DNA from: an uncultured virus (IMG/VR IMGVR_UViG_3300042516_002158)
Lineage: Duplodnaviria > Heunggongvirae > Uroviricota > Caudoviricetes
Virus record (IMG/VR): IMGVR_UViG_3300042516_002158
DNA: 20,000 bases
Strand: one strand, 5' to 3'
Shown: positions 120 to 20,000 of the stretch, piece after piece
Layout: each line of letters starts with the position of its first letter
Numbering within the stretch: position 1 is the stretch's first letter
Position numbers and translations under genes: made by a program
Notes under the pieces: model-generated
The model's input: the letters and a program-made list of their open reading frames with translations, nothing else
Told to the model about the DNA's origin: nothing
Database searches by the model: none

Positions 120-1385
120 TTATCCTATATAAAATGGTAACGGAATATTTTTCAACATCTTTTGTACTTGCTCAGCTTCTTGTGCTTTATACTCCATTTG
201 TTTAGGTCTACTTAATTCCTCTAAATCCTGTCTTAATTGTTCGTATAATCTATCTTTATCGTTTTGTGCTTCTGCTCTCAACGATGCACCATCTAATGAT
301 ACTTCACCATCAGGTATAGGAATAGTTGCATATTTCTCTCTAATACCACCTAATAATTCTTTTGATAATGCTAATGTATATTTCCATATCCATTGTTTAC
401 CAACTGAATTGATAGAGGTATAAGTCATACTATCATATTTTATATTAGCGTAATCACTAATAATAGAACCATTTACACCACTCTTATTTACAATTGATGA
501 TGCTGTTCTTTCATCCGATAACACATATTCAAACCAAACCAAATCTGGATTATAAGTAGATGTTCCAGGAATTGGGAATATTTCTAATATGTTATTGTTA
601 ATATTAAAACTATATGTACTTCTACGAACCTGGTCATTAAATTCAATTGCAGATATTCTTAATAAATCTTCATAAACTGGCATTAATACGAATTGTGCCG
701 CCGGAGAAAATGAACTAAATCCAAACTCATCTAATAAGTTCAATGTACCTTTTGCCGAAACTGCATAAGGGTCAAAGAATCTGCTAATGGCCGGAACTCC
801 TTCGTAGAAAACTTTTGTGATAATAATATCTTGACCATAGTGTGAACCACTTTCTAATGAACCTGATGGTACGGTTGCTAATTTTGCACCACCATTACTT
901 TCAATATAACTTTGTGATGTTGGACTCAATGCACCCAAATCATACCTTTGAACTCCACCAATCAATCTCAATGAACCTTTATGAACCGTTGCACCTCTAT
1001 TTCCACCTACATTCGCTTCTATACCATATGAGTTAGCTATCGTAATAACTTGGTTTGTATTTGCACCTTCAACATAATTACCTGTATGATTAGTATTTTC
1101 ATTTTGTTGCTGACCTAACATATTGTATAGGTTGTTACGAATATTAAATGCATTTACTTGTGCTGAATACTCTGAAATAGATTCTTCAAAACATGCATAA
1201 ATATTATCAGGTAATAACTCTACATTTTGTACAGGATACCCTAATCTTTTAGCTACCCAATCACCTACTTTATCGGCGTGTTGTCTGAATAAACTTTCAC
1301 TATCATATAAACCAAATGGTGTTGATCCTGTTTCAAAGGATGAACTACCCGGCCAATTAATTGATGTTACTAAATCTGCTGCCAT
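120..1385 (-). CDS. Probable neck / head-tail adaptor protein (T4 gp13-like)
   Basis: 421 aa. N-terminal RLGYPVQNVEL and C-terminal WIWKYTLALSKELLGGIREKY..IP.GEVSLDG..L...A..., ending PLPFYIG, resemble gp13-type neck proteins. Lies downstream of the capsid gene. Confidence 0.7.
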   Translation of the reverse strand: MAADLVTSINWPGSSSFETGSTPFGLYDSESLFRQHADKVGDWVAKRLGYPVQNVELLPDNIYACFEESISEYSAQVNAFNIRNNLYNMLGQQQNENTNHTGNYVEGANTNQVITIANSYGIEANVGGNRGATVHKGSLRLIGGVQRYDLGALSPTSQSYIESNGGAKLATVPSGSLESGSHYGQDIIITKVFYEGVPAISRFFDPYAVSAKGTLNLLDEFGFSSFSPAAQFVLMPVYEDLLRISAIEFNDQVRRSTYSFNINNNILEIFPIPGTSTYNPDLVWFEYVLSDERTASSIVNKSGVNGSIISDYANIKYDSMTYTSINSVGKQWIWKYTLALSKELLGGIREKYATIPIPDGEVSLDGASLRAEAQNDKDRLYEQLRQDLEELSRPKQMEYKAQEAEQVQKMLKNIPLPFYIG

Positions 1386-1398
1386 TATAATCCTTTTG

Positions 1399-3518: not shown

Positions 3519-5171
3519 TTACAATAAGTTTAAGTCACCGATTACAATCTTACCGAAGAATTCAGGTCTTACTAACTTCTTAGCGTAACGAGTCATAACA
3601 CCTCTTCTTGGAGTGAAGTTATCTGGATCGTATACTAAAGGAGTTAAAATCAATGGTACATATGGAGCGTAAACAGCACCAGTCTCTAAGAAGTTGTTAC
3701 CTTTGTAACCTAACAACATTACGTTCTCAGTCATGTAAGGGTTCTTGTAAACTGTGTATCTATTTGCGATTGAACCAACTTGAGTTACACCTGCTGCGAA
3801 TGATTTAGCATCTTTATCAGCTGATACTGTGAACGCTGGGATTGATTCTAAAATAGTACATACGTCAGGAGAAGCAACGATAAAGTTAGCACCACCTCTC
3901 ATAGTTAATTGATGAATTTTGTTTGAAACTTTGTTCAACTTAGTACCTAAAGTTTGGAACCAAGTGTTTCTTGTGTATGCAGAAGCTGCAGCTACATCAG
4001 AATCGATTTCAAAGTTTGAACCATTCCACTCATTACCAACCTTTAAAGACCAGTATTCAGTAGTTAATGCGTTAGCTTTTAACATATCTAAGATTTCTAA
4101 GTCGATTTCTAAAGAAATGTACTCAGATAACATAGAAGTTAATTCAGCTTCAGCATCAATTGAATGGTAAGCGTTCAAGTCTTGTGCCAACTCTGGAGTC
4201 CACACAGCTTTTAACTTACGAGTTTTAGCAACGATTGCTTCACTCTTCAATTCTAAATCGATTTGAGGAATAGCTAAATCTGTACCACCTGCAGTATCAC
4301 CACCTGTGATTGGATCTCTATCTTCGAAATCACCTCTAGAAATAGAAGTTGGTTGCTTAGAATAAACTACACCAATTGTAGATGCTGTTGAACCAGAAGA
4401 AATTGCGTTACCAGCTACGATGAATGATACAGTACCGTTTGAAGAGTATGTAGTCAATGCAGGATAGTAGTTACTGAATGTTGAAACTGTACCGTTTGTA
4501 GTTGAACCAGATACATAGAAACTTCTAACTGCGTTTACATCAGCTGATAATGCAGCTACTGAAGCAGAAGTTAAAGTCAATTTGTAAATAGTACCAGCTG
4601 CAACAGATGCAGATAAATCACCATCAAAGTTTACATCAGCTAAAGAAGTTACTTTTGCAGTAGTTACTGAAGCTAAGATTGCATCTTGTTGGTTAACTGA
4701 ATATCCGAATCTACCAGCACCGTATAAACCACCTTCTGCAGCATCAGTTGAACCTAATTTTCCGTTACCAGTACCACCGTAAAGTGATTTAGTATTGAAA
4801 GATGGGTTACCTGCTTGTGCAGAACCGTATTTGAAATCCATGTAGAAAATCAAACCTGAAGGTAAGTTCATTGGTTGTACAGAAACGAATTCTTTTGCAG
4901 CGATTTCACCGAAGATTCTTCTTACTAATGGTAAAGCTACACCAGACCATTCTTCAGAACCTGCTGAAGTACCAGTTTGAGTTGCCTCGTCAAGCAATTG
5001 CTTAGCTTGGTTTTCCAACAATACAGCCATAGCGTGTTGTTGAGGTTTTTCACCTATTCCTTCTAAAAGACCAGTTTTTTCCCATTTGTTTTTTAAACCT
5101 CTAGTTTGCTCAAGCATAACTGAAGTTGGGTTCTTGCCTTCCATAAGTTTTGTTAAATCAAAATTTGCCAT
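3519..5171 (-). CDS. gp23: Major capsid protein (T4 gp23-like)
   Basis: 550 aa with hallmark segments LLENQ, LPLVRR, VSVQPMNLPSGLIFY, AKTRKLKAVWTPELAQDLNAYHSIDAEAEL, YAPYVPL and FTPRRGVMTRYA. Confidence 0.97.
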   Translation of the reverse strand: MANFDLTKLMEGKNPTSVMLEQTRGLKNKWEKTGLLEGIGEKPQQHAMAVLLENQAKQLLDEATQTGTSAGSEEWSGVALPLVRRIFGEIAAKEFVSVQPMNLPSGLIFYMDFKYGSAQAGNPSFNTKSLYGGTGNGKLGSTDAAEGGLYGAGRFGYSVNQQDAILASVTTAKVTSLADVNFDGDLSASVAAGTIYKLTLTSASVAALSADVNAVRSFYVSGSTTNGTVSTFSNYYPALTTYSSNGTVSFIVAGNAISSGSTASTIGVVYSKQPTSISRGDFEDRDPITGGDTAGGTDLAIPQIDLELKSEAIVAKTRKLKAVWTPELAQDLNAYHSIDAEAELTSMLSEYISLEIDLEILDMLKANALTTEYWSLKVGNEWNGSNFEIDSDVAAASAYTRNTWFQTLGTKLNKVSNKIHQLTMRGGANFIVASPDVCTILESIPAFTVSADKDAKSFAAGVTQVGSIANRYTVYKNPYMTENVMLLGYKGNNFLETGAVYAPYVPLILTPLVYDPDNFTPRRGVMTRYAKKLVRPEFFGKIVIGDLNLL

Positions 5172-5201
5172 TTTGTTTTTTCCTTATTTGTTTTTTGTTA
5201 A

Positions 5202-6443
5202 TTATTTTAAAATACCAGCCAACTCTTTAAATCTATTAGCGTAAGATGTACCTTCACTAATTACTGATTGTGCAGTTGGTTTTGTTGATTTTTGAACTCT
5301 ACTAGCACCTTCTGCGATTTGCTTTACAGCTTTTTTCGTAGATGCGTTAGAAAATTTCATACTTTCAGCTAATGTTGAGTAAACTAATTTTACTTCTCTA
5401 ACGTTTGTAGTTCTGTCTAAAGAGTCAATTACTTTAGATTTTTGCTCGTTAGTTAAGTTATAGCTTCTAAACAATTTATTAGAGAACAACAATTTAGCAT
5501 TCAATAAGTTTACTTCATTGATTGTAGATTTCAAAGATTTGATTACTGAAATAGCTTCTGCTAATTCTGCTTTCAATACTTTAGTTTCTTCTACTTTCTC
5601 TTTTTCTTCTTCTTCAGCCTTTTCTTCTTCTTCTAATTCTTTGATGATTTCTTCGATGTTCATTTCTTCTTCATCGTTTTCTTCACCTTCTTTTGCGTAA
5701 ACCGCATTTGGGTTATCAGCATCCATTGCAGTATCTACATCGTCAGCTTCTTCACCCATTTGATCAAACTCATCAGAATCGATATTATCTTCATCAGACT
5801 CTTCTTCCATTTCATTATCGCCATAGTGCAATTCTTGCTCTAATTCTCTAATGATAGATTCTAAATCCAAATCATCTTCTGATTGGTCATCACCTTGCAT
5901 TTCGTCTTCGTTTCCGTCCATTTCATTATTCATTGCTGATTGCTCATCACCTGAATTTTCTTGATCGAATTCGTCACCTTCAGTTGCAAATTTAACGTCA
6001 CCTGATGCTAAATCTTCTTCTTCACCATCAGCTTCAGTAATAGATTTTGTAAATTCATACTCTTCTACTTCTGCTTCTGGTTTTTTAGATGTTGATGTTA
6101 CACCAGCTGCACCCAACTTATCTTCTGCACCTGCATCATGATAAGATGGTTTTTTGTTGTTCTGACCTGATGTTGTACCACCATCGCCAGCACCGATATT
6201 AGATGAAGAATATTCTTCTTCAACTTTCTCTTCTTCTTTCTCTTCGTCATCACCGTATGCTTCTTTCATTTCATCTTCATCAGATTCCATGTCTTCAGCT
6301 TCAGCTCTTAACTTTTGAGAAAGCATTGATTTCAATCTTGGAGTAAATGCCTCTTCCAATTGAATCTTAGCGTTTGCTAATGCAGTTTCACGAACGGCCT
6401 TAGCATCAGCGATTGCTTCTTTCAATAATTTTGAACTTGCCAT
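5202..6443 (-). CDS. Prohead core scaffolding protein (gp22 analogue)
   Basis: 413 aa, extremely acidic centre, coiled-coil-like N- and C-terminal parts, ends RFKELAGILK; immediately upstream of the capsid gene. Confidence 0.8.
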   Translation of the reverse strand: MASSKLLKEAIADAKAVRETALANAKIQLEEAFTPRLKSMLSQKLRAEAEDMESDEDEMKEAYGDDEEKEEEKVEEEYSSSNIGAGDGGTTSGQNNKKPSYHDAGAEDKLGAAGVTSTSKKPEAEVEEYEFTKSITEADGEEEDLASGDVKFATEGDEFDQENSGDEQSAMNNEMDGNEDEMQGDDQSEDDLDLESIIRELEQELHYGDNEMEEESDEDNIDSDEFDQMGEEADDVDTAMDADNPNAVYAKEGEENDEEEMNIEEIIKELEEEEKAEEEEKEKVEETKVLKAELAEAISVIKSLKSTINEVNLLNAKLLFSNKLFRSYNLTNEQKSKVIDSLDRTTNVREVKLVYSTLAESMKFSNASTKKAVKQIAEGASRVQKSTKPTAQSVISEGTSYANRFKELAGILK

Positions 6444-6465
6444 TTCTTTATGTCCTTTTGATTTG

Positions 6466-6585
6466 TTAAGCCATTATAGGATTAGGCGGCTTAAATAGAA
6501 TTTTGATATTCTTTCGGAACTCTATATAAAGATAGAGTATTCATCGAGTATCGTAAAAATAAAATTTCCTAATAATAGAGGAAAT
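6466..6585 (-). promoter_or_regulatory. Structured intergenic leader with three 7-bp hairpins
   Basis: Inverted repeats at 6564-6570/6579-6585 (ATTTCCT/AGGAAAT, followed by a T-rich run on the minus strand), 6519-6525/6532-6538 (ACTCTAT/ATAGAGT) and 6466-6472/6488-6494 (TTAAGCC/GGCTTAA). Confidence 0.5.
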
Positions 6586-6620
6586 ATATAATATACATAT
6601 ATACTTTTTATACTAAACGA

Positions 6621-6860
6621 TTAAAGTCCTATATATTTTTTAGGAATTTGTTTAATATTTTTGAATTCTAAGTTGTTTTTTGCAGTTCTTAATTGCTTTC
6701 TAACTGCTTTTTCGTTTTGAACTCTCTTTTTTGCAGATGGTTTTGTGAAGTATTTTCTGTCTCTTAGTTCTTCAACTGCACCACTATCTTGCCATTTCTT
6801 TTTTAAAACCTTTAACGCTTTTTGTAAATTGTCATTGTTGACATTGTCGATAATAATCAT
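6621..6860 (-). CDS. rpsU: Phage-encoded 30S ribosomal protein bS21
   Basis: 79 aa, basic; NLQKALKVLKKK..SG...ELRDRKYFTKPSAKKR is the bS21 signature. The MIII start resembles Bacteroidota bS21. Confidence 0.9.
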   Translation of the reverse strand: MIIIDNVNNDNLQKALKVLKKKWQDSGAVEELRDRKYFTKPSAKKRVQNEKAVRKQLRTAKNNLEFKNIKQIPKKYIGL

Positions 6861-6883
6861 TCTTTATTTTTATTTGTAACTTA

Positions 6884-7108
6884 TTATGATAAGAAATATA
6901 ATGAACCAGCACTAACTAATGCACTATTTGGGTAACAAGGAAAAGGTTGTCCAACTGGTAAATCTGCAATAGATACTGAACCACTTGTTAGATATAATGT
7001 ACCAGCTCCACTTGTTCCTCTCATTACTCCCCAACTTTTATCAGGTGCTGCAACAATTGTTGAACCTGATGTTGCTGTAAATACTTTGTTTGTTCTATAA
7101 TTTGTCAT
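6884..7108 (-). CDS. Small hypothetical protein, possibly virion-associated
   Basis: 74 aa, S/T/G-rich, fills the gap between neighbouring genes on the coding strand. Confidence 0.6.
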   Translation of the reverse strand: MTNYRTNKVFTATSGSTIVAAPDKSWGVMRGTSGAGTLYLTSGSVSIADLPVGQPFPCYPNSALVSAGSLYFLS

Positions 7109-7125: not shown

Positions 7126-7761
7126 TTAGTGTTTATGATGTCCACCACAACCACAGTCATGTACTTTATTACATCCACAATCTGATTTATTTTCTTTAAC
7201 TATTGCTTCATTTTTAGGAACACAATTTGGAACTTCTCTACCGTTTTTCATTTTCATTCCAACTTGTTGATATCCTTTCCAACACGGTCCTTCTGCTTCA
7301 GGCATTAAATTTCTCATTTTTAATGATTGTTCTACCTTTGGTTTTCTATGTCCTAATCTATGCATTGCAGTTTCTTCATCAATATCTGCTATTTCAAAAT
7401 ACTTACCCAATACATATCCCATATCTTCATACATAGAAGCTAATCTTTGTTGAAGTTGTTTTGCTTCGTTTGCAGTTTTTTCAAATTGACCAGATAATTT
7501 GTTCAATTCATTCATATTTCTTTTAACCGTTGCAGGATCAAAATTGTTTCCACTTTCTTTCATTGCAAAAGTATGAGCTGCATCTACAATAGCACCTAAT
7601 GTTTCAGCTATTTTAGCTAAATCTTGTTCTGCTGCTAATTTAGGCCCAAATGCTTTATATGTTGAAATCACTTCTAAGAAATGTCTTCTTGCTTCGTTGT
7701 GCATTGGAGATGGTGCTTTCTTATCTTCACCTTCACCCATTAATTTTTTTAACTTTATCAT
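7126..7761 (-). CDS. Hypothetical head-module protein with a CWKGY..VPNCV motif and Cys/His-rich tail
   Basis: 211 aa; starts MIKLKKLMGE, helical core, then GPCWKGYQQVGMKMKNGREVPNCVP and CGCNKVHDCGCGGHHKH. Confidence 0.75.
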   Translation of the reverse strand: MIKLKKLMGEGEDKKAPSPMHNEARRHFLEVISTYKAFGPKLAAEQDLAKIAETLGAIVDAAHTFAMKESGNNFDPATVKRNMNELNKLSGQFEKTANEAKQLQQRLASMYEDMGYVLGKYFEIADIDEETAMHRLGHRKPKVEQSLKMRNLMPEAEGPCWKGYQQVGMKMKNGREVPNCVPKNEAIVKENKSDCGCNKVHDCGCGGHHKH

Positions 7762-7766
7762 ACTAT

Positions 7767-7775
7767 TATAAATAT
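7767..7775 (-). promoter_or_regulatory. ATATTTATA upstream motif
   Basis: Exact copy in a 15-nt intergenic gap, 5 nt upstream of the ATG at 7761. Confidence 0.55.
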
Positions 7776-7776
7776 A

Positions 7777-8076
7777 TTAAAATGAACTATTGATTAACTT
7801 ATAGTCCTTTTCGGATAATTCTTTCTTTGCTTTTTTTAATAACTTATCAACTAAACCATCTCTTTCCTTTTGATCTGCGGTTGTTAATGAACCTCTTTTA
7901 TCGTGGTCTTTTTTGATTTGTTGTAATTTTCTTACTGCATCTTTATCATCCATATAGATTGCCAATTCAACTGCCGCTGCACTATGTTCATTTCTATCGG
8001 TCATTTTACTAACCTTTTTGTTGAATGCTTCTGCTGGATTATATGCTTCACCCAATAAATCTTTTAACTTTATCAT
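7777..8076 (-). CDS. Hypothetical small charged protein (candidate internal head protein)
   Basis: 99 aa; starts MIKLKDLLGEA; start overlaps the protease stop (TAATG). Confidence 0.75.
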   Translation of the reverse strand: MIKLKDLLGEAYNPAEAFNKKVSKMTDRNEHSAAAVELAIYMDDKDAVRKLQQIKKDHDKRGSLTTADQKERDGLVDKLLKKAKKELSEKDYKLINSSF

Positions 8077-8666
8077 TAGTTTAATTCCTCTATAATTTGT
8101 CTCATTAAATCTTGTGATCTACAAAAATCTCCACATACATCTACTTCCTTACTAACACTTTCATTCATATTAGTAGGTGATAAAAATGCACCATGTGTTG
8201 ATGGATTAGAAACAAAATCAAATCCAATTAATTCAAAATCTTCTTGTACCATTACGGTTTCATCTCTGTTTGGTTTAACTGAACCTAATCCTCTACTACT
8301 AATACCTAAACGAATATTATGTTTAAATAATTCTTTTAAGATGTTTCCTGCTGGTGTTGATAATACTTCTACTACCCCACATAAATCTTTGTCTTCCCAA
8401 TACATTTCTACAATATTATGAGATACATTCTTTAAGTTAATCACCGTAGATTCTGGATGGTCTAATTCACCCAATGCTCTTCTTTCTTTGATTAGGGTTT
8501 CGTATTTCTTAGATTCTCTCTGCAAAATATGCATTGGATAAATACGATTGTTTTGATTTGCTGCATCTGCTCTTTGAAGTACTCCCTTAACTAAGAATTT
8601 ACCATTTTGGTCTTCCTTAATTTTTCCTTCAAATAAGTTATGTTCTATAATTAAATTCTTTGCCAT
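8076..8666 (-). CDS. gp21: Prohead core protein protease (T4 gp21-like)
   Basis: 196 aa with NQNNRIYP, ALGELDHP, NVSH, GISSRGLGS and DFVSNPS motifs. Confidence 0.95.
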   Translation of the reverse strand: MAKNLIIEHNLFEGKIKEDQNGKFLVKGVLQRADAANQNNRIYPMHILQRESKKYETLIKERRALGELDHPESTVINLKNVSHNIVEMYWEDKDLCGVVEVLSTPAGNILKELFKHNIRLGISSRGLGSVKPNRDETVMVQEDFELIGFDFVSNPSTHGAFLSPTNMNESVSKEVDVCGDFCRSQDLMRQIIEELN

Positions 8667-8667
8667 A

Positions 8668-9504
8668 CTATGATAATAAGTGATAATATTCTTTAAAATG
8701 TTTTATTCTATCTGCTAATCCAATTGTTCCACCATTTACTCTTTTAGTAATTTTTGTTACAACTGTATCACTTGCTCCTTCATCAGCCATCTTATGTAAT
8801 CCGTTTTTGGTAAAGAACCATGCTGCTGATAATAATGCGTATTGAGATGCTACTAAATCTGGATTAACAGTCATATCAATTCCAATAGATTTACCAAATG
8901 CGGTGTAGTTATCTTTACCGGTCAATTGGATATATCCTCTACCTCTAAACTTATATCCATCACCACTTGCTTCAGTTCCGTTACCCATTCTATTAGAATA
9001 CACTTTATTTGCAATCTTTTGTGGGTTTCTATTATAAGGTGCTGCAGCTGCTTCTGTTGGGAAATATTTTTTAAAGATACCATTCAAACCTTTTGCTGAA
9101 TAGTTTAAGTTTTCTTGTGTTAAACGGAATCCACCACTTTCATGTCCACATTGTGCTAAGAAGTGTGCTAATCTTAATGGAGTATTAATTTGGAACTTAG
9201 CTGCCGTATCAGGAATCATAGAGATTACTGCATCTGGAATATGTCCTTTTAGTTTGTCTAATTTTAAACCAGCAATAGGTGCTATTGGAGTTTGAACAGG
9301 AGCAGGAACTGATTGTCCTTCTGCCATAATCATTGCCCATGTTTTATCACCAACTATTCCGTCAGCATCCAAACCATGTGCAGCTTGCCAAGCTTTTACT
9401 GCAGCTTCTGTTTTTGGACCAAAGTTAGTAACAGCTGGTTCGATACCCAACTTTTGTTGCATTAACTTTACGTTTTCGTTATTATCACCTTTCTTTAACA
9501 ACAT
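8668..9504 (-). CDS. Modular endolysin: N-terminal peptidoglycan-binding domain plus GH19 catalytic domain
   Basis: FGPKTEAAVKAWQAAHGLDADGIVGDKTW (PG_binding_1 pattern); HFLAQCGHESGGF, RGRGYIQLTGKDNY and ITKRVNGG (GH19 pattern). Confidence 0.92.
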   Translation of the reverse strand: MLLKKGDNNENVKLMQQKLGIEPAVTNFGPKTEAAVKAWQAAHGLDADGIVGDKTWAMIMAEGQSVPAPVQTPIAPIAGLKLDKLKGHIPDAVISMIPDTAAKFQINTPLRLAHFLAQCGHESGGFRLTQENLNYSAKGLNGIFKKYFPTEAAAAPYNRNPQKIANKVYSNRMGNGTEASGDGYKFRGRGYIQLTGKDNYTAFGKSIGIDMTVNPDLVASQYALLSAAWFFTKNGLHKMADEGASDTVVTKITKRVNGGTIGLADRIKHFKEYYHLLS

Positions 9505-10176: not shown

Positions 10177-10812
10177 TTATGCCTTTTTTAATCTAATTGT
10201 TTGATATTTATCCATCTTTCTAAAACTAGCTGCTTGTGTTTGTGCAGTTGCTTTAGGTGCTGGTTTTGTTAATGTTACTCTCTTTGCATTAGGATTACTA
10301 CCTTTTGGTGTAGCTGTAACTGCGTATTTTTCTAATGCTCCTGCTTTTTTAGAATCAACTTCCTCTATACTTTCCTCATTTTCAGATTTATCAATTTCTT
10401 GAATAGAGTTAGCTATTTTTATAATTCTTTCTTTGATTCTATAAATATTTGTATTAGTTCTTTTAAAGAAATCATGTTTCCCTAAATTGTTTTCACTTCT
10501 TAATCTATTATACCAACCAACAAATTTTTCAATTTCTGCTAATTGATTTTTTAATTCTCTAATACCATGTGAAACTTTTTGAGATGGAGTTCTTGTCTCA
10601 TCTCTTTTTAATTCTAACCAACGATTTTCTGCTAATTCAAAACCGTCGCCAGTAGATTTAACCTTACGTTCTTTATCACCTTTAGTATTTTTACCAAAAG
10701 CATGTGGAGTATCATATCCTGCTACATTTGCAGTTCCTGTAAATTCTCTAATTCTTTTACGAATAGTTTCTTTCAGTTTAGATAGTTGTTCTTCGGATAG
10801 TTGATTTGACAT
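10177..10812 (-). CDS. Hypothetical head-module protein
   Basis: 211 aa, basic and coiled-coil-like, with VAGYDTPHAFG; AAGGAG 7 nt upstream; overlaps the preceding gene by 35 nt. Confidence 0.75.
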   Translation of the reverse strand: MSNQLSEEQLSKLKETIRKRIREFTGTANVAGYDTPHAFGKNTKGDKERKVKSTGDGFELAENRWLELKRDETRTPSQKVSHGIRELKNQLAEIEKFVGWYNRLRSENNLGKHDFFKRTNTNIYRIKERIIKIANSIQEIDKSENEESIEEVDSKKAGALEKYAVTATPKGSNPNAKRVTLTKPAPKATAQTQAASFRKMDKYQTIRLKKA

Positions 10813-11668
10813 CCTTTAACTCCTTTTGTAATTCATAACACATAATTAACGATGTGATATGATTATCTTTGATTTTACTACTACTAACTATTTTTGATAA
10901 TTGGTTAATTGTTTCTGCTAATTTAATTTTTGTAACTTTATCGGTTATTTTAGTACCAATTTGTTTAAAATCTTTAACCAATACTTTTACTTCATTAACA
11001 ACATATTTTTTTAAGTTGTCAGAATTAGTAAATGAATTGATATATTCTTTTAATAAACCTTTTTGTTGTTCATTAAGATTTGTGTATTTCTTATTAAAGT
11101 TTTCAATTAATACATTATAAGTCAACAAACGAATTTCTTCATCTTCTTTTTTAAGTTGAGTTTCAATTGTTGATTCGGTAATTGCTTTTGTATTAATAGC
11201 CTTTCCAGTTAAATGTTCTACTAATGCATATTTTGTATTAATAAAATCTTTTGGATCGTAATTTTGTTCAGTATTAACCTTATATTCAAATATTTTATAT
11301 ACTGATGCTAATACCTTATAGTTTGGTATTTGAGAACGTAAAAACTCATCAATAGAGTAATTATCTTTAATCTCTTTAATTAGATTATATTTCTCTTTCA
11401 AGATTTTCTTTTCGTCTAATTTAGCTCTACTGTCAATTACTGCATCTACAAACTTTTCAGCTCTATTCTCACTATTATATTTTTCAGATACAATAAATTG
11501 ATAAAGTTTCAATTCATTAGACAATTCTGTCTTTGAATTAAAATACTTTTTTAATAATCCTTCTGCGATACCTTTTCTATTATTTAAAATATCTGAGGTC
11601 ACTTGTCTTACAAGCAATTCGAAAAGGAAGCCTGTGTTTCTAAATTTTGAATGTTTAATTTGTTTCAT
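10778..11668 (-). CDS. Hypothetical helical protein downstream of portal (possible prohead core component)
   Basis: 296 aa starting MKQIKHSKFRNTGFLFELL. Function inferred only from its position between portal and protease. Confidence 0.75.
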   Translation of the reverse strand: MKQIKHSKFRNTGFLFELLVRQVTSDILNNRKGIAEGLLKKYFNSKTELSNELKLYQFIVSEKYNSENRAEKFVDAVIDSRAKLDEKKILKEKYNLIKEIKDNYSIDEFLRSQIPNYKVLASVYKIFEYKVNTEQNYDPKDFINTKYALVEHLTGKAINTKAITESTIETQLKKEDEEIRLLTYNVLIENFNKKYTNLNEQQKGLLKEYINSFTNSDNLKKYVVNEVKVLVKDFKQIGTKITDKVTKIKLAETINQLSKIVSSSKIKDNHITSLIMCYELQKELKDVKSTIRRTTI

Positions 11669-11714: not shown

Positions 11715-13583
11715 CTAATTTTCTATGATATTTTGTTCATCCATCATTGAATTTCCTTCTCTTATTATCTGTTTTCCATCTTTTTTGATAGATTTTTTAA
11801 TCATATCAATAAAATTTTCGTTTTTACTTTGATTTCTCCAGTCTTTTTTACCCAACGGATCTCTACCAAATGGTGATTTATCCTTTCCATAAGTAGTATG
11901 AGATGATGGTCTTCCAACTGGTTTTGCACTTTCTTCTACTTCACCATCCATTCCCAATTCTTTTTCTAATGAAGAAAGTTGATCTTCAATATCTAAAGGT
12001 TGTCCTTCTGGTTGTGGTTCTTCTTCTGGTTGTTCCTCACCTTGTTGAACATCCATAGGATTACCTTCTTCATCAGTACCCAATTCAGGTTGTTGTCCTA
12101 ACATACCTTGTTGCTCTTGTGGTTTTTCTGTTCCGGTTTGTTCTAAGTTATTTAATACAAATGTTAATTTAGCATCATCTTTTAATGCTTCTCTTTGTAA
12201 TTCTGCTTCTTCAAATGTAAAATTAAGAATATTTTTATACATCCAATCTTTAGATATAATCTTTAATTGATCCATTTTTTGGATTAATTCAATTTTAGCT
12301 GTCCAAAGATTTACTTTTTCTTGTTCGTATATTACTGATGGTACTGTTAAACTTAATTCAAAATTAGTTAATTCCGTATCATCAATACCTTGTGCGTATA
12401 AATGGGCGATTGCAATCTTTTCTAATCCATCAACTACAATTCTTTGTAATCTTTCGATTGTTTTTGCAAATCTCATATCTTGTCCGGCTAATGTTGCTTT
12501 TGAGTTACCATCTTCAATATATCCTAAATGTTGTTTAGGTATTTTTAAAGCTGCAAACATTTTATTCTTTAAGTAATCAATATCCTCAATAGGTGAATAC
12601 TCTAATCCATCTAAGTTTGTAATTTCAGTTCCACTATCACTACCTCTAACAGGTAAATAGAAATCTTCCATTAAGTTTTGAATATTATACTTTAAGTTAT
12701 ATTCACCAGTCGTAGAGTTAACGTATGGAGTTTTTTTAGATTTGTTGATAATTCTTTGAACATACTGATCAACTTCATTTGGTGGAATACCACCTACATC
12801 TATCTTAAAAATTCTCTTTTGTGGTGCTCTAACAATTCTATGAATAATCATAGCATCTTCCATTAAAGATAATTGTTTCCACAATCTTCTTGCACTTTCT
12901 AAGAATGATTTTCCGTAAGGTAAGAAATTGGTATCACTTAATAATCTAAAGTGTGCCATTTCATAGTTCTCATATTCTTGCTTTTGTCCAGCAACGAACA
13001 TAGATTTTGTTGCTAATGGAGTATGAACAAACTTAACTGCTTGCCAATTATTTGGGTCAAATCCTTCTACTCTTGTAATTTCATAAGTTGATAATGGTTG
13101 AACACCTATTATACCCAATTTATCTGCAATTTCTAAATGTAAAAAGAAATCACCATATTTAACCAAATTTCTTGTCCAAGGCCATAAATTGAAATCAACA
13201 TTAAGAACATCATAAAATAAATTATCTAATAATTCTTTTATTTGTTCGTTGTTAGTTTTAATTTCTACCACTCTACCATACTCATTTCTAGCCGTTGATT
13301 CATCTGCGTAAATATCCAATGCTGCACCGATAATTGGGTCCATATCCATTGAATCATAATCTCTAAATAATTCTTGTCTTATTTGCTGATATGCTAAATA
13401 ATTTTCATAAGTAGAGTTCATTGATGATGAGTGAAGACGAGTGTATCTATCTCTAAGGTTAGTAGCGATAGCCTGTGTTTCATCAAAATCAATTATTTTA
13501 ATCTTACCATCTGCTGTTCTACGAACCATTGTGGTTGTGGAGAACAGCTTTTTAAGCCTTCCGTATATTGTAGTATCTGCCAT
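11715..13583 (-). CDS. gp20: Portal protein (T4 gp20-like)
   Basis: 622 aa with PYGKSFLESARRLWKQLSLMEDAMIIHRIVRAPQKRIFKIDVG, EDFYLPVRG...GTEITNL and DIDYLKNKMFAALKIP; acidic Q/E/P-rich C-terminal extension. Confidence 0.95.
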   Translation of the reverse strand: MADTTIYGRLKKLFSTTTMVRRTADGKIKIIDFDETQAIATNLRDRYTRLHSSSMNSTYENYLAYQQIRQELFRDYDSMDMDPIIGAALDIYADESTARNEYGRVVEIKTNNEQIKELLDNLFYDVLNVDFNLWPWTRNLVKYGDFFLHLEIADKLGIIGVQPLSTYEITRVEGFDPNNWQAVKFVHTPLATKSMFVAGQKQEYENYEMAHFRLLSDTNFLPYGKSFLESARRLWKQLSLMEDAMIIHRIVRAPQKRIFKIDVGGIPPNEVDQYVQRIINKSKKTPYVNSTTGEYNLKYNIQNLMEDFYLPVRGSDSGTEITNLDGLEYSPIEDIDYLKNKMFAALKIPKQHLGYIEDGNSKATLAGQDMRFAKTIERLQRIVVDGLEKIAIAHLYAQGIDDTELTNFELSLTVPSVIYEQEKVNLWTAKIELIQKMDQLKIISKDWMYKNILNFTFEEAELQREALKDDAKLTFVLNNLEQTGTEKPQEQQGMLGQQPELGTDEEGNPMDVQQGEEQPEEEPQPEGQPLDIEDQLSSLEKELGMDGEVEESAKPVGRPSSHTTYGKDKSPFGRDPLGKKDWRNQSKNENFIDMIKKSIKKDGKQIIREGNSMMDEQNIIEN

Positions 13584-13591
13584 AATTTATT

Positions 13592-14137
13592 TTACCATTT
13601 TCTACAAGACCAATATCTTGCTTTTGTTCTCGGTCCTGGATTATCACAATTGTGTCTAGCTCTAAACGATTTTCTCGCTTTTGGGTTAGATTTTCTTATT
13701 TTCATTGTTTTCTCACCCTTAGCCGCTGCCGATGTTCCACCGTGTCCAAAGTTTACTTTAACAACATTACCTGCTGGATTTTTTACATAAACTTTAAATT
13801 TCTTAACATCACCTCTCATTGGTTTGCCCAATGGAACTTTTCTACCTTGATATTCTGCTTCTTCGATTACCGATTCGTTATATGCTTCTCTTTCTCTTTG
13901 TTTTGTTTTCATAAAAGAAATAAAATCATCATAATCATATTCGTTTTCTACATCATATTCATCATAATCACCTGCATCTTCATAATCACCACACTCTTCA
14001 CAATGTTCTTCCGAAATATTACCGAACCCAGTTCCACTATATATTTTACCTAATTCAATTTCTTGACCATTTTCCATAGTTATTGATTTCCTACTTGAAG
14101 GTAAACCAAAAAATTCATATAAAAAACTTTTCTTCAT
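13592..14137 (-). CDS. Phage protein with an acidic N-terminal half and basic C-terminal domain
   Basis: The ORF track starts at TTG 14161; ATG 14137 with AGGA 8 nt upstream is more likely. The C-terminal KKFKVYVKN..GNVVKVNFG...ARKSFRARHNC...KARYWSC resembles a domain of unknown function recurrent in aquatic phages. Confidence 0.75.
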   Translation of the reverse strand: MKKSFLYEFFGLPSSRKSITMENGQEIELGKIYSGTGFGNISEEHCEECGDYEDAGDYDEYDVENEYDYDDFISFMKTKQREREAYNESVIEEAEYQGRKVPLGKPMRGDVKKFKVYVKNPAGNVVKVNFGHGGTSAAAKGEKTMKIRKSNPKARKSFRARHNCDNPGPRTKARYWSCRKW

Positions 14138-14163
14138 ACTTTTTTTCCTATTATTATACAATA

Positions 14164-14176: not shown

Positions 14177-15766
14177 TTATCGAATTAACCATCTCAAGTC
14201 TTCAAAATCATCTTTATTAACTTGCATTTGATACGGATCTACTCTTAAATCATCGTTTGTATAAACTGGATTATACTCACTTTTTTGAAATCCATTTAAT
14301 GCACTTCTACTCATACCCACTCGTTCACCCTGTAATCTAAGTGCAGTATCTCTAACCCACAATCCAATACCTAACGCCATAGTTAAATCATCATTATAAC
14401 CCCTTGCTGCCTCTGCTCTACCATTTGCCCATACAAAGGTAAACAACTCATCTATCGTTCTCTTAGACCTTATTACAACGGATTTATCCTTCATATAAGC
14501 ATCTATCTTAGAAACAATCATAGGACGAGTTCTGGTTGTAATTGTAAAACCAGGAATCATTTGTTTTTGTTCTCTATAATATTTGTTTGTAAATTGAGTA
14601 TCTACATCTACATACTGAATATCTTTAGGTTGCCAAAATAAATTTTTATAATCTCTATCTAATATTTGTTGTATTGTTGCCCATCCAATATTTGCATTAT
14701 CTACAATTAATAGTGCATCATTATAATCCGTTGCTACACTTATTAATAAATTGGCAAAATCTTTAGGGTCTATCTTTCCTTTATATTCTGCAACTTGTTC
14801 CATTGATTCAATATCGATTACATGAAACGCAGAATAATCGGCACCATCACCTCTAGCAACATCCGCTGTAACTACATATGTTTTTGTATAATCCGGCTTA
14901 TTCCAAACCCATAGATTATTATCAAATCCTCTCTTTTCCTCAGGATCTTTTATGTAATTAGCAATATACCATTGTAATAATTCACCATCAATTACATTAT
15001 CACCCGAAGAAATGAAATCACAATCACACTCTTGTGCTGCCTGTTTTTCACCTAATTGTTGTGTTTGTTCATCTCTCCAATCTTGTTCTCTATCAGGATG
15101 TACCGTCCAGTGAAGTTTGATAGGATTAAACAAATTGTCACCGTTTTCTGCACCTACCCACATTCTATGAAACCAATTACCCACACCATTCGGAGTAGAA
15201 AGTGCAATACAGTCACCACCCGTCGCAAGTGTTAACTGAGTACCAGTCCATATCTCATCAATGTAATCGATAAAGGCTGCTTCATCAAATACTAATAGTG
15301 ATAAGGCTTCCGAACGACCAGAGTCAGGTTTGGAAGATACCGCTTTTACTTGTGAACCATTTTTTAATCTAAGGGAGAGTTTGTTATCTTCTGATTCAGA
15401 TACTCTTAACCATACCGGTAGTAACTGATTCATTGTTCTAACTTTCAATACTAAGTTCTTTGCTACATCTTGTTTGTTCGCAATAATAAGAACGTTAAAA
15501 TCCTCATTAAATATCATTTTCCATAGTGCATAACCTGCTACTAATGTTGATATACCCAACTGACGAGATTTTAAAACAATATTGTATCTATTATCTTTAA
15601 AATCTGTTAGGGTATCTTCCTGAAACGGATATAATTCAAAGGGAATTTTTCCTCTAATTGGATGCTGAATTTTACAATATTTTTTCATAAAGTATACCGG
15701 ATCACCAGCACACTTTTGATATTGTTCCTTAATTACATCCTTTAGGGATTTTTGGGGAGTATTCAT
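14177..15766 (-). CDS. terL: Terminase large subunit (T4 gp17-like)
   Basis: 529 aa; LYPFQ adenine-binding motif, KSRQLGIST Walker A, LLVFDEAAF Walker B, STPNG coupling motif, nuclease motifs ADVARGDGADYS and NDDL. No intein or intron apparent. Confidence 0.97.
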   Translation of the reverse strand: MNTPQKSLKDVIKEQYQKCAGDPVYFMKKYCKIQHPIRGKIPFELYPFQEDTLTDFKDNRYNIVLKSRQLGISTLVAGYALWKMIFNEDFNVLIIANKQDVAKNLVLKVRTMNQLLPVWLRVSESEDNKLSLRLKNGSQVKAVSSKPDSGRSEALSLLVFDEAAFIDYIDEIWTGTQLTLATGGDCIALSTPNGVGNWFHRMWVGAENGDNLFNPIKLHWTVHPDREQDWRDEQTQQLGEKQAAQECDCDFISSGDNVIDGELLQWYIANYIKDPEEKRGFDNNLWVWNKPDYTKTYVVTADVARGDGADYSAFHVIDIESMEQVAEYKGKIDPKDFANLLISVATDYNDALLIVDNANIGWATIQQILDRDYKNLFWQPKDIQYVDVDTQFTNKYYREQKQMIPGFTITTRTRPMIVSKIDAYMKDKSVVIRSKRTIDELFTFVWANGRAEAARGYNDDLTMALGIGLWVRDTALRLQGERVGMSRSALNGFQKSEYNPVYTNDDLRVDPYQMQVNKDDFEDLRWLIR

Positions 15767-16413
15767 TATTTTTTCAACTTAATCTTCCAATAAACACCAG
15801 CTCCAATATATGGTGATAATGTTCCATTAGTTCCATCGGTTACTCTATTAGCAACACCAACACCTAAATTATAGATTTTGTCTTTTTTAGTTTTTATAAT
15901 TAATCCTGCACCAACATTTGAAATTACATCTTCTTTGTTGAATCCACCAGTTAAACCATAATATACTTGTGTTTTTGGTAATTCTTTAACAATAAGTGTT
16001 TCTTTAATTTCTCTTTGTTTTACTTTTGCATCAAATGTTCTACCCCATATTTTGTTTTGGGAAATTGTATCAGTTACTGCAATTGTTCCTAATGAATCAG
16101 GTAATACTAATACATCTTTATATAATACTTTTGAGTAGTAATCTTTTAATAGTGCTGCCGTATCTACTACTGCAGGAATGATTATTTCTTTCTCTACGAT
16201 TGTTTCGTGATAGATATCTTCACCTTTCTTAGTTACTACTTTAGTTTTAACTACTTCAAATGTATCTATATCATGTTTGATTACTTCATATTTTTTTCCT
16301 TCAATACGAATAGTTTTTCCACCTGGCATTACACCACCTGGGTTAAACCATTGTAATAATACGAATAAGATTAATGCAACAATTGCTATGTTCTTAAAGT
16401 TCAAAAATTTCAT
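15766..16413 (-). CDS. Membrane-anchored or exported protein with C-terminal amphipathic beta-strands (candidate spanin-like lysis protein)
   Basis: Basic N-terminus plus hydrophobic IAIVALILFVLLQWF; C-terminal strands YYGLTGGF, VGAGLII, YNLGVGV, YIGAGVYWKI. Function is inference. Confidence 0.6.
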   Translation of the reverse strand: MKFLNFKNIAIVALILFVLLQWFNPGGVMPGGKTIRIEGKKYEVIKHDIDTFEVVKTKVVTKKGEDIYHETIVEKEIIIPAVVDTAALLKDYYSKVLYKDVLVLPDSLGTIAVTDTISQNKIWGRTFDAKVKQREIKETLIVKELPKTQVYYGLTGGFNKEDVISNVGAGLIIKTKKDKIYNLGVGVANRVTDGTNGTLSPYIGAGVYWKIKLKK

Positions 16414-17059
16414 TATATACCTCTTTTATTTTTTTAAAATTTGTTTCTGTTTCTGTTTCTAATCTTTCTATTTCAGATACCGCTTCTTCAATATCTGCTT
16501 CAATATTTTTCTTTACTTGTTCAATATCACCATCAAAACTCCACTTTTCAATACTACCATCTGCCTGTATAAATTGTGGTTGTGTTTCAACATCTCTTCT
16601 CGCTTGTATAAATCTAGCTAACATATCTTTTACATATGATAATTGATTTGCTGTCATTTTCCAAGTTTCGTAATCATTCCATATTCCTTTAACTCTAAAT
16701 TGATGTTCTTTAGTTGCTAAACAATTTATACAATATCCTGTTTTTCTAGCATATATTAAATTGTTTCCAGAAAGTTTACCAGTCTCACATTTTTCATTTT
16801 TACATTGATCTAATGATTGGATATAATTTCTAACACTATCCATTTGTGTTACTCTCGAAATAAATCCGTCATGTTGTTCCCACTCCTTTCCATCTGCATC
16901 AATCCAAGTATCACCAACTTCTCTTTTTTCCTTAGGTCCAGCTGTCCATCCTACCGTTGCGTTCCCATTATCTCTACCATGCATTACATCCAAAATCTTT
17001 TTCCTACTTGGATGCATCCATTGTTTCTTATCCTTATTTCCTTTACTCTTAATTAACAT
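16394..17059 (-). CDS. Hypothetical protein with a putative Zn-binding motif
   Basis: 221 aa; REVGDTWIDADGKEWEQ hairpin-like segment, then CKNEKC...CINC and a C-terminal coiled coil. Confidence 0.75.
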   Translation of the reverse strand: MLIKSKGNKDKKQWMHPSRKKILDVMHGRDNGNATVGWTAGPKEKREVGDTWIDADGKEWEQHDGFISRVTQMDSVRNYIQSLDQCKNEKCETGKLSGNNLIYARKTGYCINCLATKEHQFRVKGIWNDYETWKMTANQLSYVKDMLARFIQARRDVETQPQFIQADGSIEKWSFDGDIEQVKKNIEADIEEAVSEIERLETETETNFKKIKEVYNEIFEL

Positions 17060-19998: not shown

Positions 19999-20000
19999 AT

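Follow-up and report, generated by a model that had tools for sequence, protein, structure and literature searches.

A phage bS21 with arginine at position 54 and Shine-Dalgarno-like motifs on the virion genes of a lake phage: a candidate system for retuning host ribosomes

The ribosomes of Bacteroidota carry an anti-Shine-Dalgarno (anti-SD) sequence that is normally hidden, and the only natural use of it that we know of is the autoregulation of rpsU. Tyr54 of the ribosomal protein bS21, a signature residue of the phylum, stacks on A1534 where the tail of the 16S rRNA turns toward bS18 and bS6 (Jha 2020, PMC7797042). In Flavobacterium johnsoniae the Y54A substitution gave 70% more GFP from a reporter with a strong Shine-Dalgarno sequence (SD), and 3-fold increases were seen for rpsU'-gfp in vivo and in vitro; taken together, Y54A and a C-terminal deletion raised SD-reporter expression by a factor of 1.7 to 5 both in vivo and in vitro, and the same authors speculated on phage-encoded bS21 (McNutt 2023, PMC9976891). 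Lake phages with predicted Bacteroidetes hosts carry bS21 near the genes for the protease, major capsid protein (MCP), portal and large terminase (TerL) and express it late, and it was proposed that the phage protein replaces host bS21 and favours phage mRNAs, with selectivity exerted through the N-terminal helix (Chen 2022, ISME Commun, PMC9723584). All 61 of those copies are aromatic at residue 54 (54 Tyr, 7 His or Phe), from which it was concluded that blocking of the anti-SD is preserved (PMC9723584). Here we describe a stretch of 20,000 nt from the virus record IMGVR_UViG_3300042516_002158 (hereafter the window), in which a bS21 gene directly upstream of the scaffold and capsid genes encodes arginine at position 54 and several virion genes are preceded by SD-like motifs. 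An earlier, sequence-only reading of the window had proposed that this bS21 frees the anti-SD of host ribosomes in favour of SD-bearing late genes; the part that it gave to Tyr54 in hiding the anti-SD is borne out by the published Y54A data, with their 1.7- to 3-fold SD-dependent rise (PMC9976891).

The gene is a genuine member of the bS21 family (PF01165, 46.9 bits against a cut-off of 27 bits, over residues 8-56; PHROG 21469), and it lies upstream of the scaffold and capsid genes, as had been read from the sequence, and on the same strand. Searching solved structures with HMMER, we found 40 bS21 chains matching the phage protein at E<=1, the best of them from Porphyromonas gingivalis (9i5v, E 1.3e-9; source structure 9I5V, PMC12123416) and F. 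johnsoniae (7jil, E 3.6e-8), followed by Staphylococcus aureus (E 1.5e-5). Both Bacteroidota structures align from residue 1 and score 13 bits above the next phylum, which marks the N-terminal helices as Bacteroidota-type, and judged by its sequence the phage protein appears to derive from a Bacteroidota bS21. Arg54 pairs with Tyr54 of F. johnsoniae (7jil_z) and with the equivalent Tyr of P. gingivalis (9i5v_9) in HMMER alignments that are ungapped from K40-P41-S42, and aligning the protein by MAFFT with four named Bacteroidota bS21s of cellular origin places it in the same column, where the cells have KA[VI]Y and the phage has R; the substitution proposed by the sequence-only reading holds. 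It is invariant in 20 of 20 members of the clade to which the window belongs (75-96% identity), as are the residues of the C-terminal tail LEFxNxKxIPKKxIGL. After KPS the phage tail contains 12 Lys or Arg and 2 Asp or Glu, compared with 4-8 Lys or Arg in the four cellular Bacteroidota copies, so that the protein departs from the Bacteroidia-type anti-SD-sequestering bS21 both at the signature tyrosine and in its C-terminus. A genome scan with the alignment of the phage bS21 clade gave 600 pattern matches, none of which was confirmed, and the bS21 matches in the protein atlas were viral clusters only.

SD-like motifs, defined as AGGA, GGAG, GAGG or AGGT at positions -18 to -4 of a start, precede 8 of 20 curated starts in the window, compared with a rate of 12.7% over all positions and of 12.2% at 475 ATGs that are not starts, and shuffled leaders gave a mean of only 1.45 of 20 (P 0.001, 2000 shuffles). 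All eight motifs that the sequence-only reading had listed are present with the same spacers, and it was equally correct in finding no SD before bS21, portal, TerL and protease.

The enrichment becomes clear over the 63 kb of this phage that could be assembled, by exact-match scans, from overlapping loci of a 156,953-bp contig, with starts taken as the first ATG of the longest non-overlapping open reading frames (ORFs). SD-like motifs were found at 10/24 starts of the head, neck and tail core, at none of 19 starts in a nucleotide-sugar and glycosyltransferase block, and at 1/17 starts over the 20 kb that follow (tail fibre, 2-oxoglutarate oxygenases, a fused SbcCD, primase and endonuclease). 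Virion starts differ from the others (10/24 versus 1/36; Fisher P=2e-4; background 11.4%), a strong signal that is limited to a single module. Eight of the 20 GGA triplets found between -40 and -1 begin at -12 to -10, which is SD spacing. Ten relatives with 75-94% nucleotide identity keep the motifs gene by gene (5/5, 6/6, 10/10, 10/10, 6/8, 3/3, 5/5 and 3/3, in the order of Table 1), even where the leader itself has turned over, with AAGAGGT in place of AAGGAG or TAGGAAA in place of CGAGGAAA, and the endolysin, which has a weak SD in the window, has an SD in 8/9 relatives through five leader variants. Genes without SDs also stay without them (0/6, 0/10 for bS21, 0/9, 0/8, 0/8 and 0/5), the portal counting 0/8 and TerL 0/5; that the mRNA of bS21 is itself SD-less, as had been claimed, is thus true of the window and of 10/10 relatives. 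The motifs have the complementarity, the spacing of 5-10 nt, the enrichment and the conservation that are looked for in SD sites. Two initiation styles, split by gene module, occur in this one phage genome.

The same counts were made in three phages with recorded hosts. In immuto (vB_FspM_immuto, Immutovirus), a Flavobacterium phage without bS21, SD-like motifs precede 1/26 starts of the head region and 5/79 elsewhere (background ~20% with a crude caller), or 2/27 starts by the deposited annotation. Mel-JY01, with Microcystis as recorded host and a bS21 in the same slot, has them at 14/26 starts in the head region and 21/47 elsewhere (background 7-8%), the latter including 18/38 in its replication block (deposited annotation, 17/29); a literature search found no papers on this phage. 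In HTVC008M, a Pelagibacter phage with bS21 among its replication genes, they precede 11/20 starts of the replication-gene locus (background 11%). The window phage is therefore immuto-like outside the virion module and similar to SD-using phages inside it.

A Bacteroidota host, assumed by the sequence-only reading, seems to us quite likely on the basis of the type of bS21 and the avoidance of SDs. The N-terminal domain of the protein is Bacteroidota-type, and HTVC008M offers a calibration of such an argument, since its bS21m-like copy fits an alphaproteobacterial host; a Flavobacteriales bS21 is also among the top named cellular matches, being the sole named cluster of 10. Furthermore, the 36 non-structural starts avoid SDs, as in immuto and unlike Mel-JY01 and HTVC008M, and SD-less sister clades and immuto are on the same branch. 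An epimerase fragment is 83% identical in a 1.6-kb contig (L104) of a metagenome-assembled genome (MAG) named 'uncultured Bacteroidetes bacterium', and that contig is probably a piece of phage DNA that was sorted into a bacterial genome; the best of the other cellular matches of the phage epimerase are non-Bacteroidota and at most 42% identical, which makes the host signal of this gene ambiguous. Direct links were sought and did not emerge: the MAG contained no window DNA and no detectable bS21, and a CRISPR and prophage search restricted to 401 genomes of its order found no array at the best short match (34/37 nt, in G149), the matches at E<=1e-3 in 55 of these genomes being mostly to the low-complexity DNA at ~5580-5690 or to endolysin and protease homologs at 67-70% nucleotide identity.

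From these results we infer, still tentatively and with somewhat less than even confidence in the whole, that the phage infects Bacteroidota and exchanges bS21 in order to favour its own virion mRNAs. The SD-less bS21 mRNA would be translated by the ordinary, SD-blind ribosomes of the host, so that synthesis of the protein would not need a liberated anti-SD. Phage bS21 would then join the 30S subunit and displace host bS21, which assembles late and can be exchanged, and subunits with Arg54 would grip the 3' tail of the 16S rRNA less tightly, allowing the anti-SD to pair. The initiation advantage would fall to virion mRNAs with a conserved AAGGA or GGAG 5-9 nt upstream of the start, including those of capsid, scaffold, adaptor and several neck and tail genes. 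This proposal is better grounded than before because the SDs are conserved and module-specific in a genome that otherwise avoids them; it is coherent and directly testable, and unproven. A more far-reaching version, in which a Bacteroidota phage lineage has made a captured bS21 into a switch, Arg54 turning SD-blind ribosomes into SD-reading ones late in infection while the most abundant virion genes of this clade evolved SD tags as a private channel of initiation and the rest of the genome initiates in the manner of the host, is in our view rather doubtful.

Several results weigh against the proposed release of the anti-SD, and most of them concern Arg54, which is special neither to the window phage nor to SD-bearing phages. 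Among 85 sources (80 MCP-related loci, four others and the window), bS21 lies upstream of MCP on the same strand in 37, with Arg (26), Leu (5), Lys (3), Tyr (2) or His (1) at position 54. Eleven of the 12 Bacteroidota-type phage bS21s that were aligned have Arg54, and such copies share a one-residue deletion relative to the cellular proteins, so that Arg54 can be regarded as an old trait of one phage bS21 lineage, a large one that contradicts the published generalisation that residue 54 is aromatic in phage copies. There are five relatives with a Bacteroidota-type Arg54 copy and SD-poor structural genes (L026, 2/12; L040, 2/13; L062, 0/11; L054, 3/10; L037, 1/15), whose MCP leaders are SD-less like that of immuto except in L024-L026. 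Conversely, SD-rich relatives may have Tyr54 (L084, 4/10) or else Leu or Lys at this residue, and some lack bS21 in the slot altogether (L059, 10/19). Arg54 therefore neither requires nor predicts SD tags, and across the 85 sources SD frequency showed no association with bS21 type, in a comparison whose class 'None' also takes in loci without coverage of the slot. Of the earlier idea that Arg54 is tied to SD-bearing late genes there stands that both are conserved in the clade of the window, where SD rates are 33-70%; at most, Arg54 was permissive for a later gain of SDs there. A separate observation on this family is that in a large group of related phages the Bacteroidota-type copies are short (55-62 aa, in L034, L037, L041, L043, L044, L054, L061, L062, L065, L070 and L079), ending soon after Arg54 with RKNKLF or RKNQKDLGFL, in effect natural C-terminal truncations; the structural genes of these phages are SD-poor.

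Since the planar guanidinium group of arginine often stacks on bases, Y54R need not behave like Y54A; Arg54 may still stack on A1534, and occlusion of the anti-SD might persist. Occlusion depends in addition on the bS18 and bS6 of the host (PMC7797042). The motifs themselves are short and, at -4 to -8 kcal/mol, do not approach the strength of the rpsU SD, and about half of the eight lie within upstream coding sequence, a caveat that the sequence-only reading had itself entered. Within the window their enrichment is modest, as seen from the counts and shuffles above and from predicted hybridisation, which reached -4.5 kcal/mol or lower at 6/20 starts against a background of 15.9% (binomial P 0.08) and -5.0 kcal/mol or lower at 6/20 against 12.9% (P 0.035), using as anti-SD a generic core that may not be that of the host's own 16S rRNA. 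The enrichment is stronger over the 63 kb, where starts beyond the window were crudely called, than in the window taken alone. The division into late genes with SDs and early genes without them did not hold: portal, TerL and protease are late genes with SD-less leaders, a tail-fibre gene behind a late-promoter-like motif has no SD, and bS21 is itself in a late-type unit.

Part of this evidence would be accounted for by a Bacteroidota host without any release of the anti-SD, an alternative that we consider possible, though unlikely. Phage bS21 would then substitute for or supplement host bS21, with Arg54 stacking on A1534 as Tyr does, and could serve in securing the supply of ribosomes late in infection, in resisting a translation-stalling defence, or in favouring mRNAs through its divergent N-terminal helix or basic tail, the helix being where selectivity was placed by Chen 2022 (PMC9723584); the motifs would be purine-rich enhancers, binding sites of another factor, or an inheritance from SD-using ancestors of the head module. 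The presence of Arg54 in nearly all aligned Bacteroidota-type phage copies regardless of SD use, and the existence of SD-less phages that have it, are as this alternative would predict. Moreover, related MCP leaders can be a single G/A apart (AAAAGGAAAAATAAA in L059 and AAAAAGAAAAATAAA in L081), and because most of the wider family is SD-rich, as in Mel-JY01 and the Leu- and Lys-type clades, SDs could be ancestral to the head module. Relic or neutral motifs should nevertheless decay, whereas these are kept gene by gene through sequence turnover and at SD spacing, in a genome whose other parts, like immuto, avoid them. A strong SD slightly lowers expression in wild-type F. johnsoniae (PMC9976891), so that keeping SDs in such a host needs a benefit.

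It is improbable, in our judgement, that the window belongs to an ordinary phage of a non-Bacteroidota host that reads SDs, such as a cyanobacterium or another low-GC lake bacterium, where bS21 would simply have its normal form, with Arg or Lys as residue 54 and a basic C-terminal tail, and the motifs would be normal ribosome-binding sites concentrated on highly expressed virion genes. Mel-JY01 gives this explanation most of its weight: SD-rich and recorded from Microcystis, it has bS21 in the same slot and strand and is as close to the window phage as immuto or closer (TerL 54.7% to each; MCP 52% versus 50%; SbcCD 39%; primase 37% versus 33%). Arginine at position 54 also occurs in S. aureus bS21 and in 42 of the 147 nearest bS21 representatives; the epimerase matches other than the binned fragment point away from Bacteroidota; and neither a spacer nor another direct host link was found in the 401 genomes and the Bacteroidetes MAG. 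Avoidance of SDs is in itself not peculiar to Bacteroidota, since a subset of Cyanobacteria also lacks them (PMC12123416). An SD-reading host should, however, leave SDs genome-wide, as in the replication genes of Mel-JY01 and HTVC008M, and not at 1/36 non-structural starts; the N-terminal domain of the window bS21 is clearly Bacteroidota-type, whereas that of Mel-JY01 is not, and the SD-less sister clades together with immuto point to Bacteroidota-like hosts. Finally, it is very improbable that this bS21 homolog acts mainly outside the tuning of initiation, as a virion-packaged protein or a binder of phage transcripts whose position reflects packaging or assembly, because, although the gene is surrounded by genes for head assembly within a unit of late type, its product ends in a conserved basic tail specific to the clade, and encapsidation was raised as a possibility by Chen 2022 (PMC9723584), packaging is without supporting evidence, the ribosome-binding N-terminal helices are conserved and Bacteroidota-like, and the bS21 of HTVC008M reportedly becomes part of E. 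coli ribosomes (cited in PMC9976891).

As regards transcription, bS21 lies within a late-type unit between the protease and the scaffold and capsid genes, presumably composed of hyp211, hyp74 and bS21 and headed by a late-promoter-like motif (Table 1). Copies of this motif head other units at ~1407, 2487, 3449, 11696, 14172 and 17084 (window, minus strand) and at ~20406 and 20556 beyond the window (coordinates of L018/L021), and the form (T/G)ATATTTAT(A) sits 5-25 nt before the first gene of several groups. The core ATATTTAT occurs 16 times against 7.1 expected in a 43-kb stretch of the window phage, 7 times against 1.6 in immuto and 9 times against 2.5 in Mel-JY01; it is probably a family-wide late promoter, a function that we assume by analogy to T4-type late promoters. 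Some copies lie so near the ATG that they would leave the mRNA with almost no leader. The pattern TTTG-N17-23-TAnnTTTG, which we take to be the Bacteroidota promoter consensus, was found 3 times against 0.8 expected, always inside coding sequence, and does not discriminate; sigma-70 patterns were at background level. The weak hairpin that follows bS21 may be a terminator or an RNA end, although its fold z-score was -1.45 and no site passed the terminator scan.

In RNA libraries of four freshwater runs, which belong to three studies, contigs extend over the genes for capsid and scaffold and over the scaffold leader with its SD, up to ~6557, and some match the window with 0-3 differences. In two runs of one study they end at 6557, and one of them runs straight into adapter sequence. 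Since these data are contigs, they indicate presence only: their depths cannot rank genes, and carry-over of DNA into RNA libraries is possible. Positions 6620-7100 (bS21 and hyp74) are covered by no contig in the four RNA runs, which speaks neither for nor against expression.

The window, of which 16,860 bases are 100% identical to two IMG/VR contigs (the 156,953-bp one included), represents the head-morphogenesis module of a T4-like myophage from lakes, ~157 kb in size, that belongs to the immuto/Mel-JY01 family. Its sequence turns up in numerous lake-water metagenomes, with 14 DNA runs containing at least 79% of sampled words. Every ORF of at least 150 aa in the 63 kb, as well as bS21, is on a single strand, all large ORFs of the window being on the minus strand, in the order protease, hyp99, hyp211, hyp74, bS21, a 177-nt gap, scaffold-like protein and capsid (Table 1). 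No tRNAs were found in loci L002, L018 and L021.

Some further features of these genes can be mentioned. The C-terminus of hyp211 is Cys/His-rich (CGCNKVHDCGCGGHHKH), and a short C-terminal stretch of it matches several PHROGs without assigned function; the C-terminus of hyp189 (13592-14161) matches PHROG 7595, and both are conserved small head-module proteins. An extremely acidic, low-complexity composition marks the scaffold-like protein, whose DNA at ~5580-5690 yields many spurious short matches to bacterial genomes; the annotation of the immuto counterpart as 'DNA polymerase phi-like' looks like a composition artefact. Positions 17110-20000, continuing to ~20394 in L018/L021, encode a ~1094-aa protein that has a cytidylyltransferase-like domain close to the C-terminal end (PF01467; PHROG 395), and two copies of the late-like motif precede the gene. 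Immediately upstream of the window (L021, 571-19980; ~31-51 kb of the contig) there is the nucleotide-sugar block of ~20 genes, with three NAD-dependent epimerase/dehydratases, an RmlC-like epimerase, two radical-SAM proteins, methyltransferases, a pair of GT7 galactosyltransferase paralogs that are both joined to a LamG-like domain, and the split halves of a thiamine pyrophosphate (TPP) enzyme; immuto likewise has a glycosyltransferase/sugar cluster. The SbcD-like and SbcC-like subunits are fused in a protein of 1048 aa (L158, 8363-11509), and Mel-JY01 (39% identity) and the huge phage LR756508 have the full-length fusion as well.

Table 1. Features of the window with their positions, strand and supporting evidence (relatives: number keeping the motif of those compared).
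Feature	Position	Strand	Evidence or remark
bS21 gene (79 aa)	6621..6860	-	PF01165 E 2.2e-12; PHROG 21469 E 5.3e-11
Codon 54, AGA (Arg)	6699..6701	-	sequence reading; alignments to Tyr54 of Bacteroidia bS21
bS21 leader, 23-nt A/T-rich gap after hyp74	6861..6883	-	no SD-like motif
Weak hairpin (UUUCCU...AGGAAA) and U-run just after bS21	6555..6584	-	fold; left arm has UUCCUC, anti-SD-like
hyp74, small gene directly 5' of bS21	6884..7108	-	no Pfam or PHROG family match
hyp211, first gene of presumed hyp211-hyp74-bS21 unit	7126..7761	-	PHROG 9737
Late-promoter-like motif ATATTTATA, 5 nt before hyp211 start	7767..7775	-	
SD-like AGGA, 8 nt before gene starting at 114	123..126	-	5/5 relatives
SD-like AAGGA, 5 nt before head-tail adaptor	1391..1395	-	6/6 relatives
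SD-like TAAGGA, 9 nt before capsid	5181..5186	-	10/10 relatives; absent from immuto MCP leader
SD-like AAGGA, 9 nt before scaffold	6453..6457	-	10/10 relatives, 4 leader variants; covered by RNA-library contigs
SD-like GAGGA, 9 nt before hyp99	8086..8090	-	inside end of protease gene; 6/8 relatives
SD-like AAGGAG, 7 nt before hyp211b	10820..10825	-	-8.4 kcal/mol; 3/3 relatives
SD-like AGGA, 8 nt before ATG at 14137	14146..14149	-	5/5 relatives, 3 leader variants
SD-like GAGGT, 5 nt before hyp215	16419..16423	-	-7.1 kcal/mol; AAGGAG instead in relatives, 3/3
Head-tail adaptor	120-1385	-	PHROG 211
Major capsid protein, gp23 type	3519..5171	-	PF07068 E 1.7e-77
Acidic scaffold-like protein (413 aa)	5202..6443	-	position of immuto gene 203 and of the Mel-JY01 gene before MCP
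hyp99	7777-8076	-	ORF
Prohead protease, SD-less leader	8076..8666	-	PF03420 E 4e-25
GH19-type endolysin	8668-9504	-	Pfam/PHROG
hyp211b	10177-10812	-	ORF
Portal, SD-less leader	11715..13583	-	PF07230 E 3.6e-76
TerL, SD-less leader	14177..15766	-	PF03237
hyp215	15766-16413	-	ORF

If the exchange of bS21 took place as proposed, this would be the first virus to alter the mRNA-selection rule of the host ribosome by swapping one ribosomal protein, and it would explain why bS21 is by far the commonest ribosomal protein carried by phages. The proposal can be tested with tools that exist in F. johnsoniae, namely a bS21 depletion strain, the Y54A and C-terminal deletion mutants, reporters with and without SD, and cryo-EM. 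Even if the mechanism fails, a phage bS21 lineage that is not aromatic at position 54 and the coexistence in one genome of two initiation styles divided by module will stand.

Compared with known systems, the window bS21 resembles that of F. johnsoniae in its homologous helices 1 and 2 and in the same 16S tail-binding position, and in F. johnsoniae the Y54A and C-terminal deletion mutants make ribosomes read SDs; the F. johnsoniae protein, however, has Tyr54, a weakly basic C-terminus and an mRNA with an extended autoregulatory SD, whereas the phage copy has Arg54, a tail with 12 Lys or Arg and an SD-less leader. The nearest cultured relatives of the phage, immuto and Mel-JY01, share with it the order TerL-portal-protease-scaffold-MCP and the ATATTTAT-type promoter-like motif. 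Immuto differs in having no bS21 and almost no SDs, and Mel-JY01 in having a generic bS21 that is not of Bacteroidota type (Bacteroidota E ~3e-3) and SDs genome-wide, including one before its own bS21. HTVC008M, like the window phage, encodes a bS21, which Mizuno et al. reportedly described in 2019 and proposed to enter host ribosomes; it differs in its Kyanoviridae genome, its SD richness and a bS21 that best matches the mitochondrial bS21m or alphaproteobacterial type. In full-text literature searches, neither an Arg54 phage bS21 nor SD-tagged genes of Bacteroidota phages came up. The closest precedent is that of the lake phages of Chen 2022 (PMC9723584), which, as the sequence-only reading had stated, already established bS21 beside phage structural genes. 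The window gene likewise has the genes for protease, MCP, portal and TerL close by, a few genes away, but it is on the strand of the structural genes and not opposite to them as in those clades, and the available portions of that article do not examine phage genes for SDs. With arginine in place of an aromatic residue at position 54, a basic extended C-terminus and SD-like motifs on the virion genes, the window copy departs from the pattern that they described.

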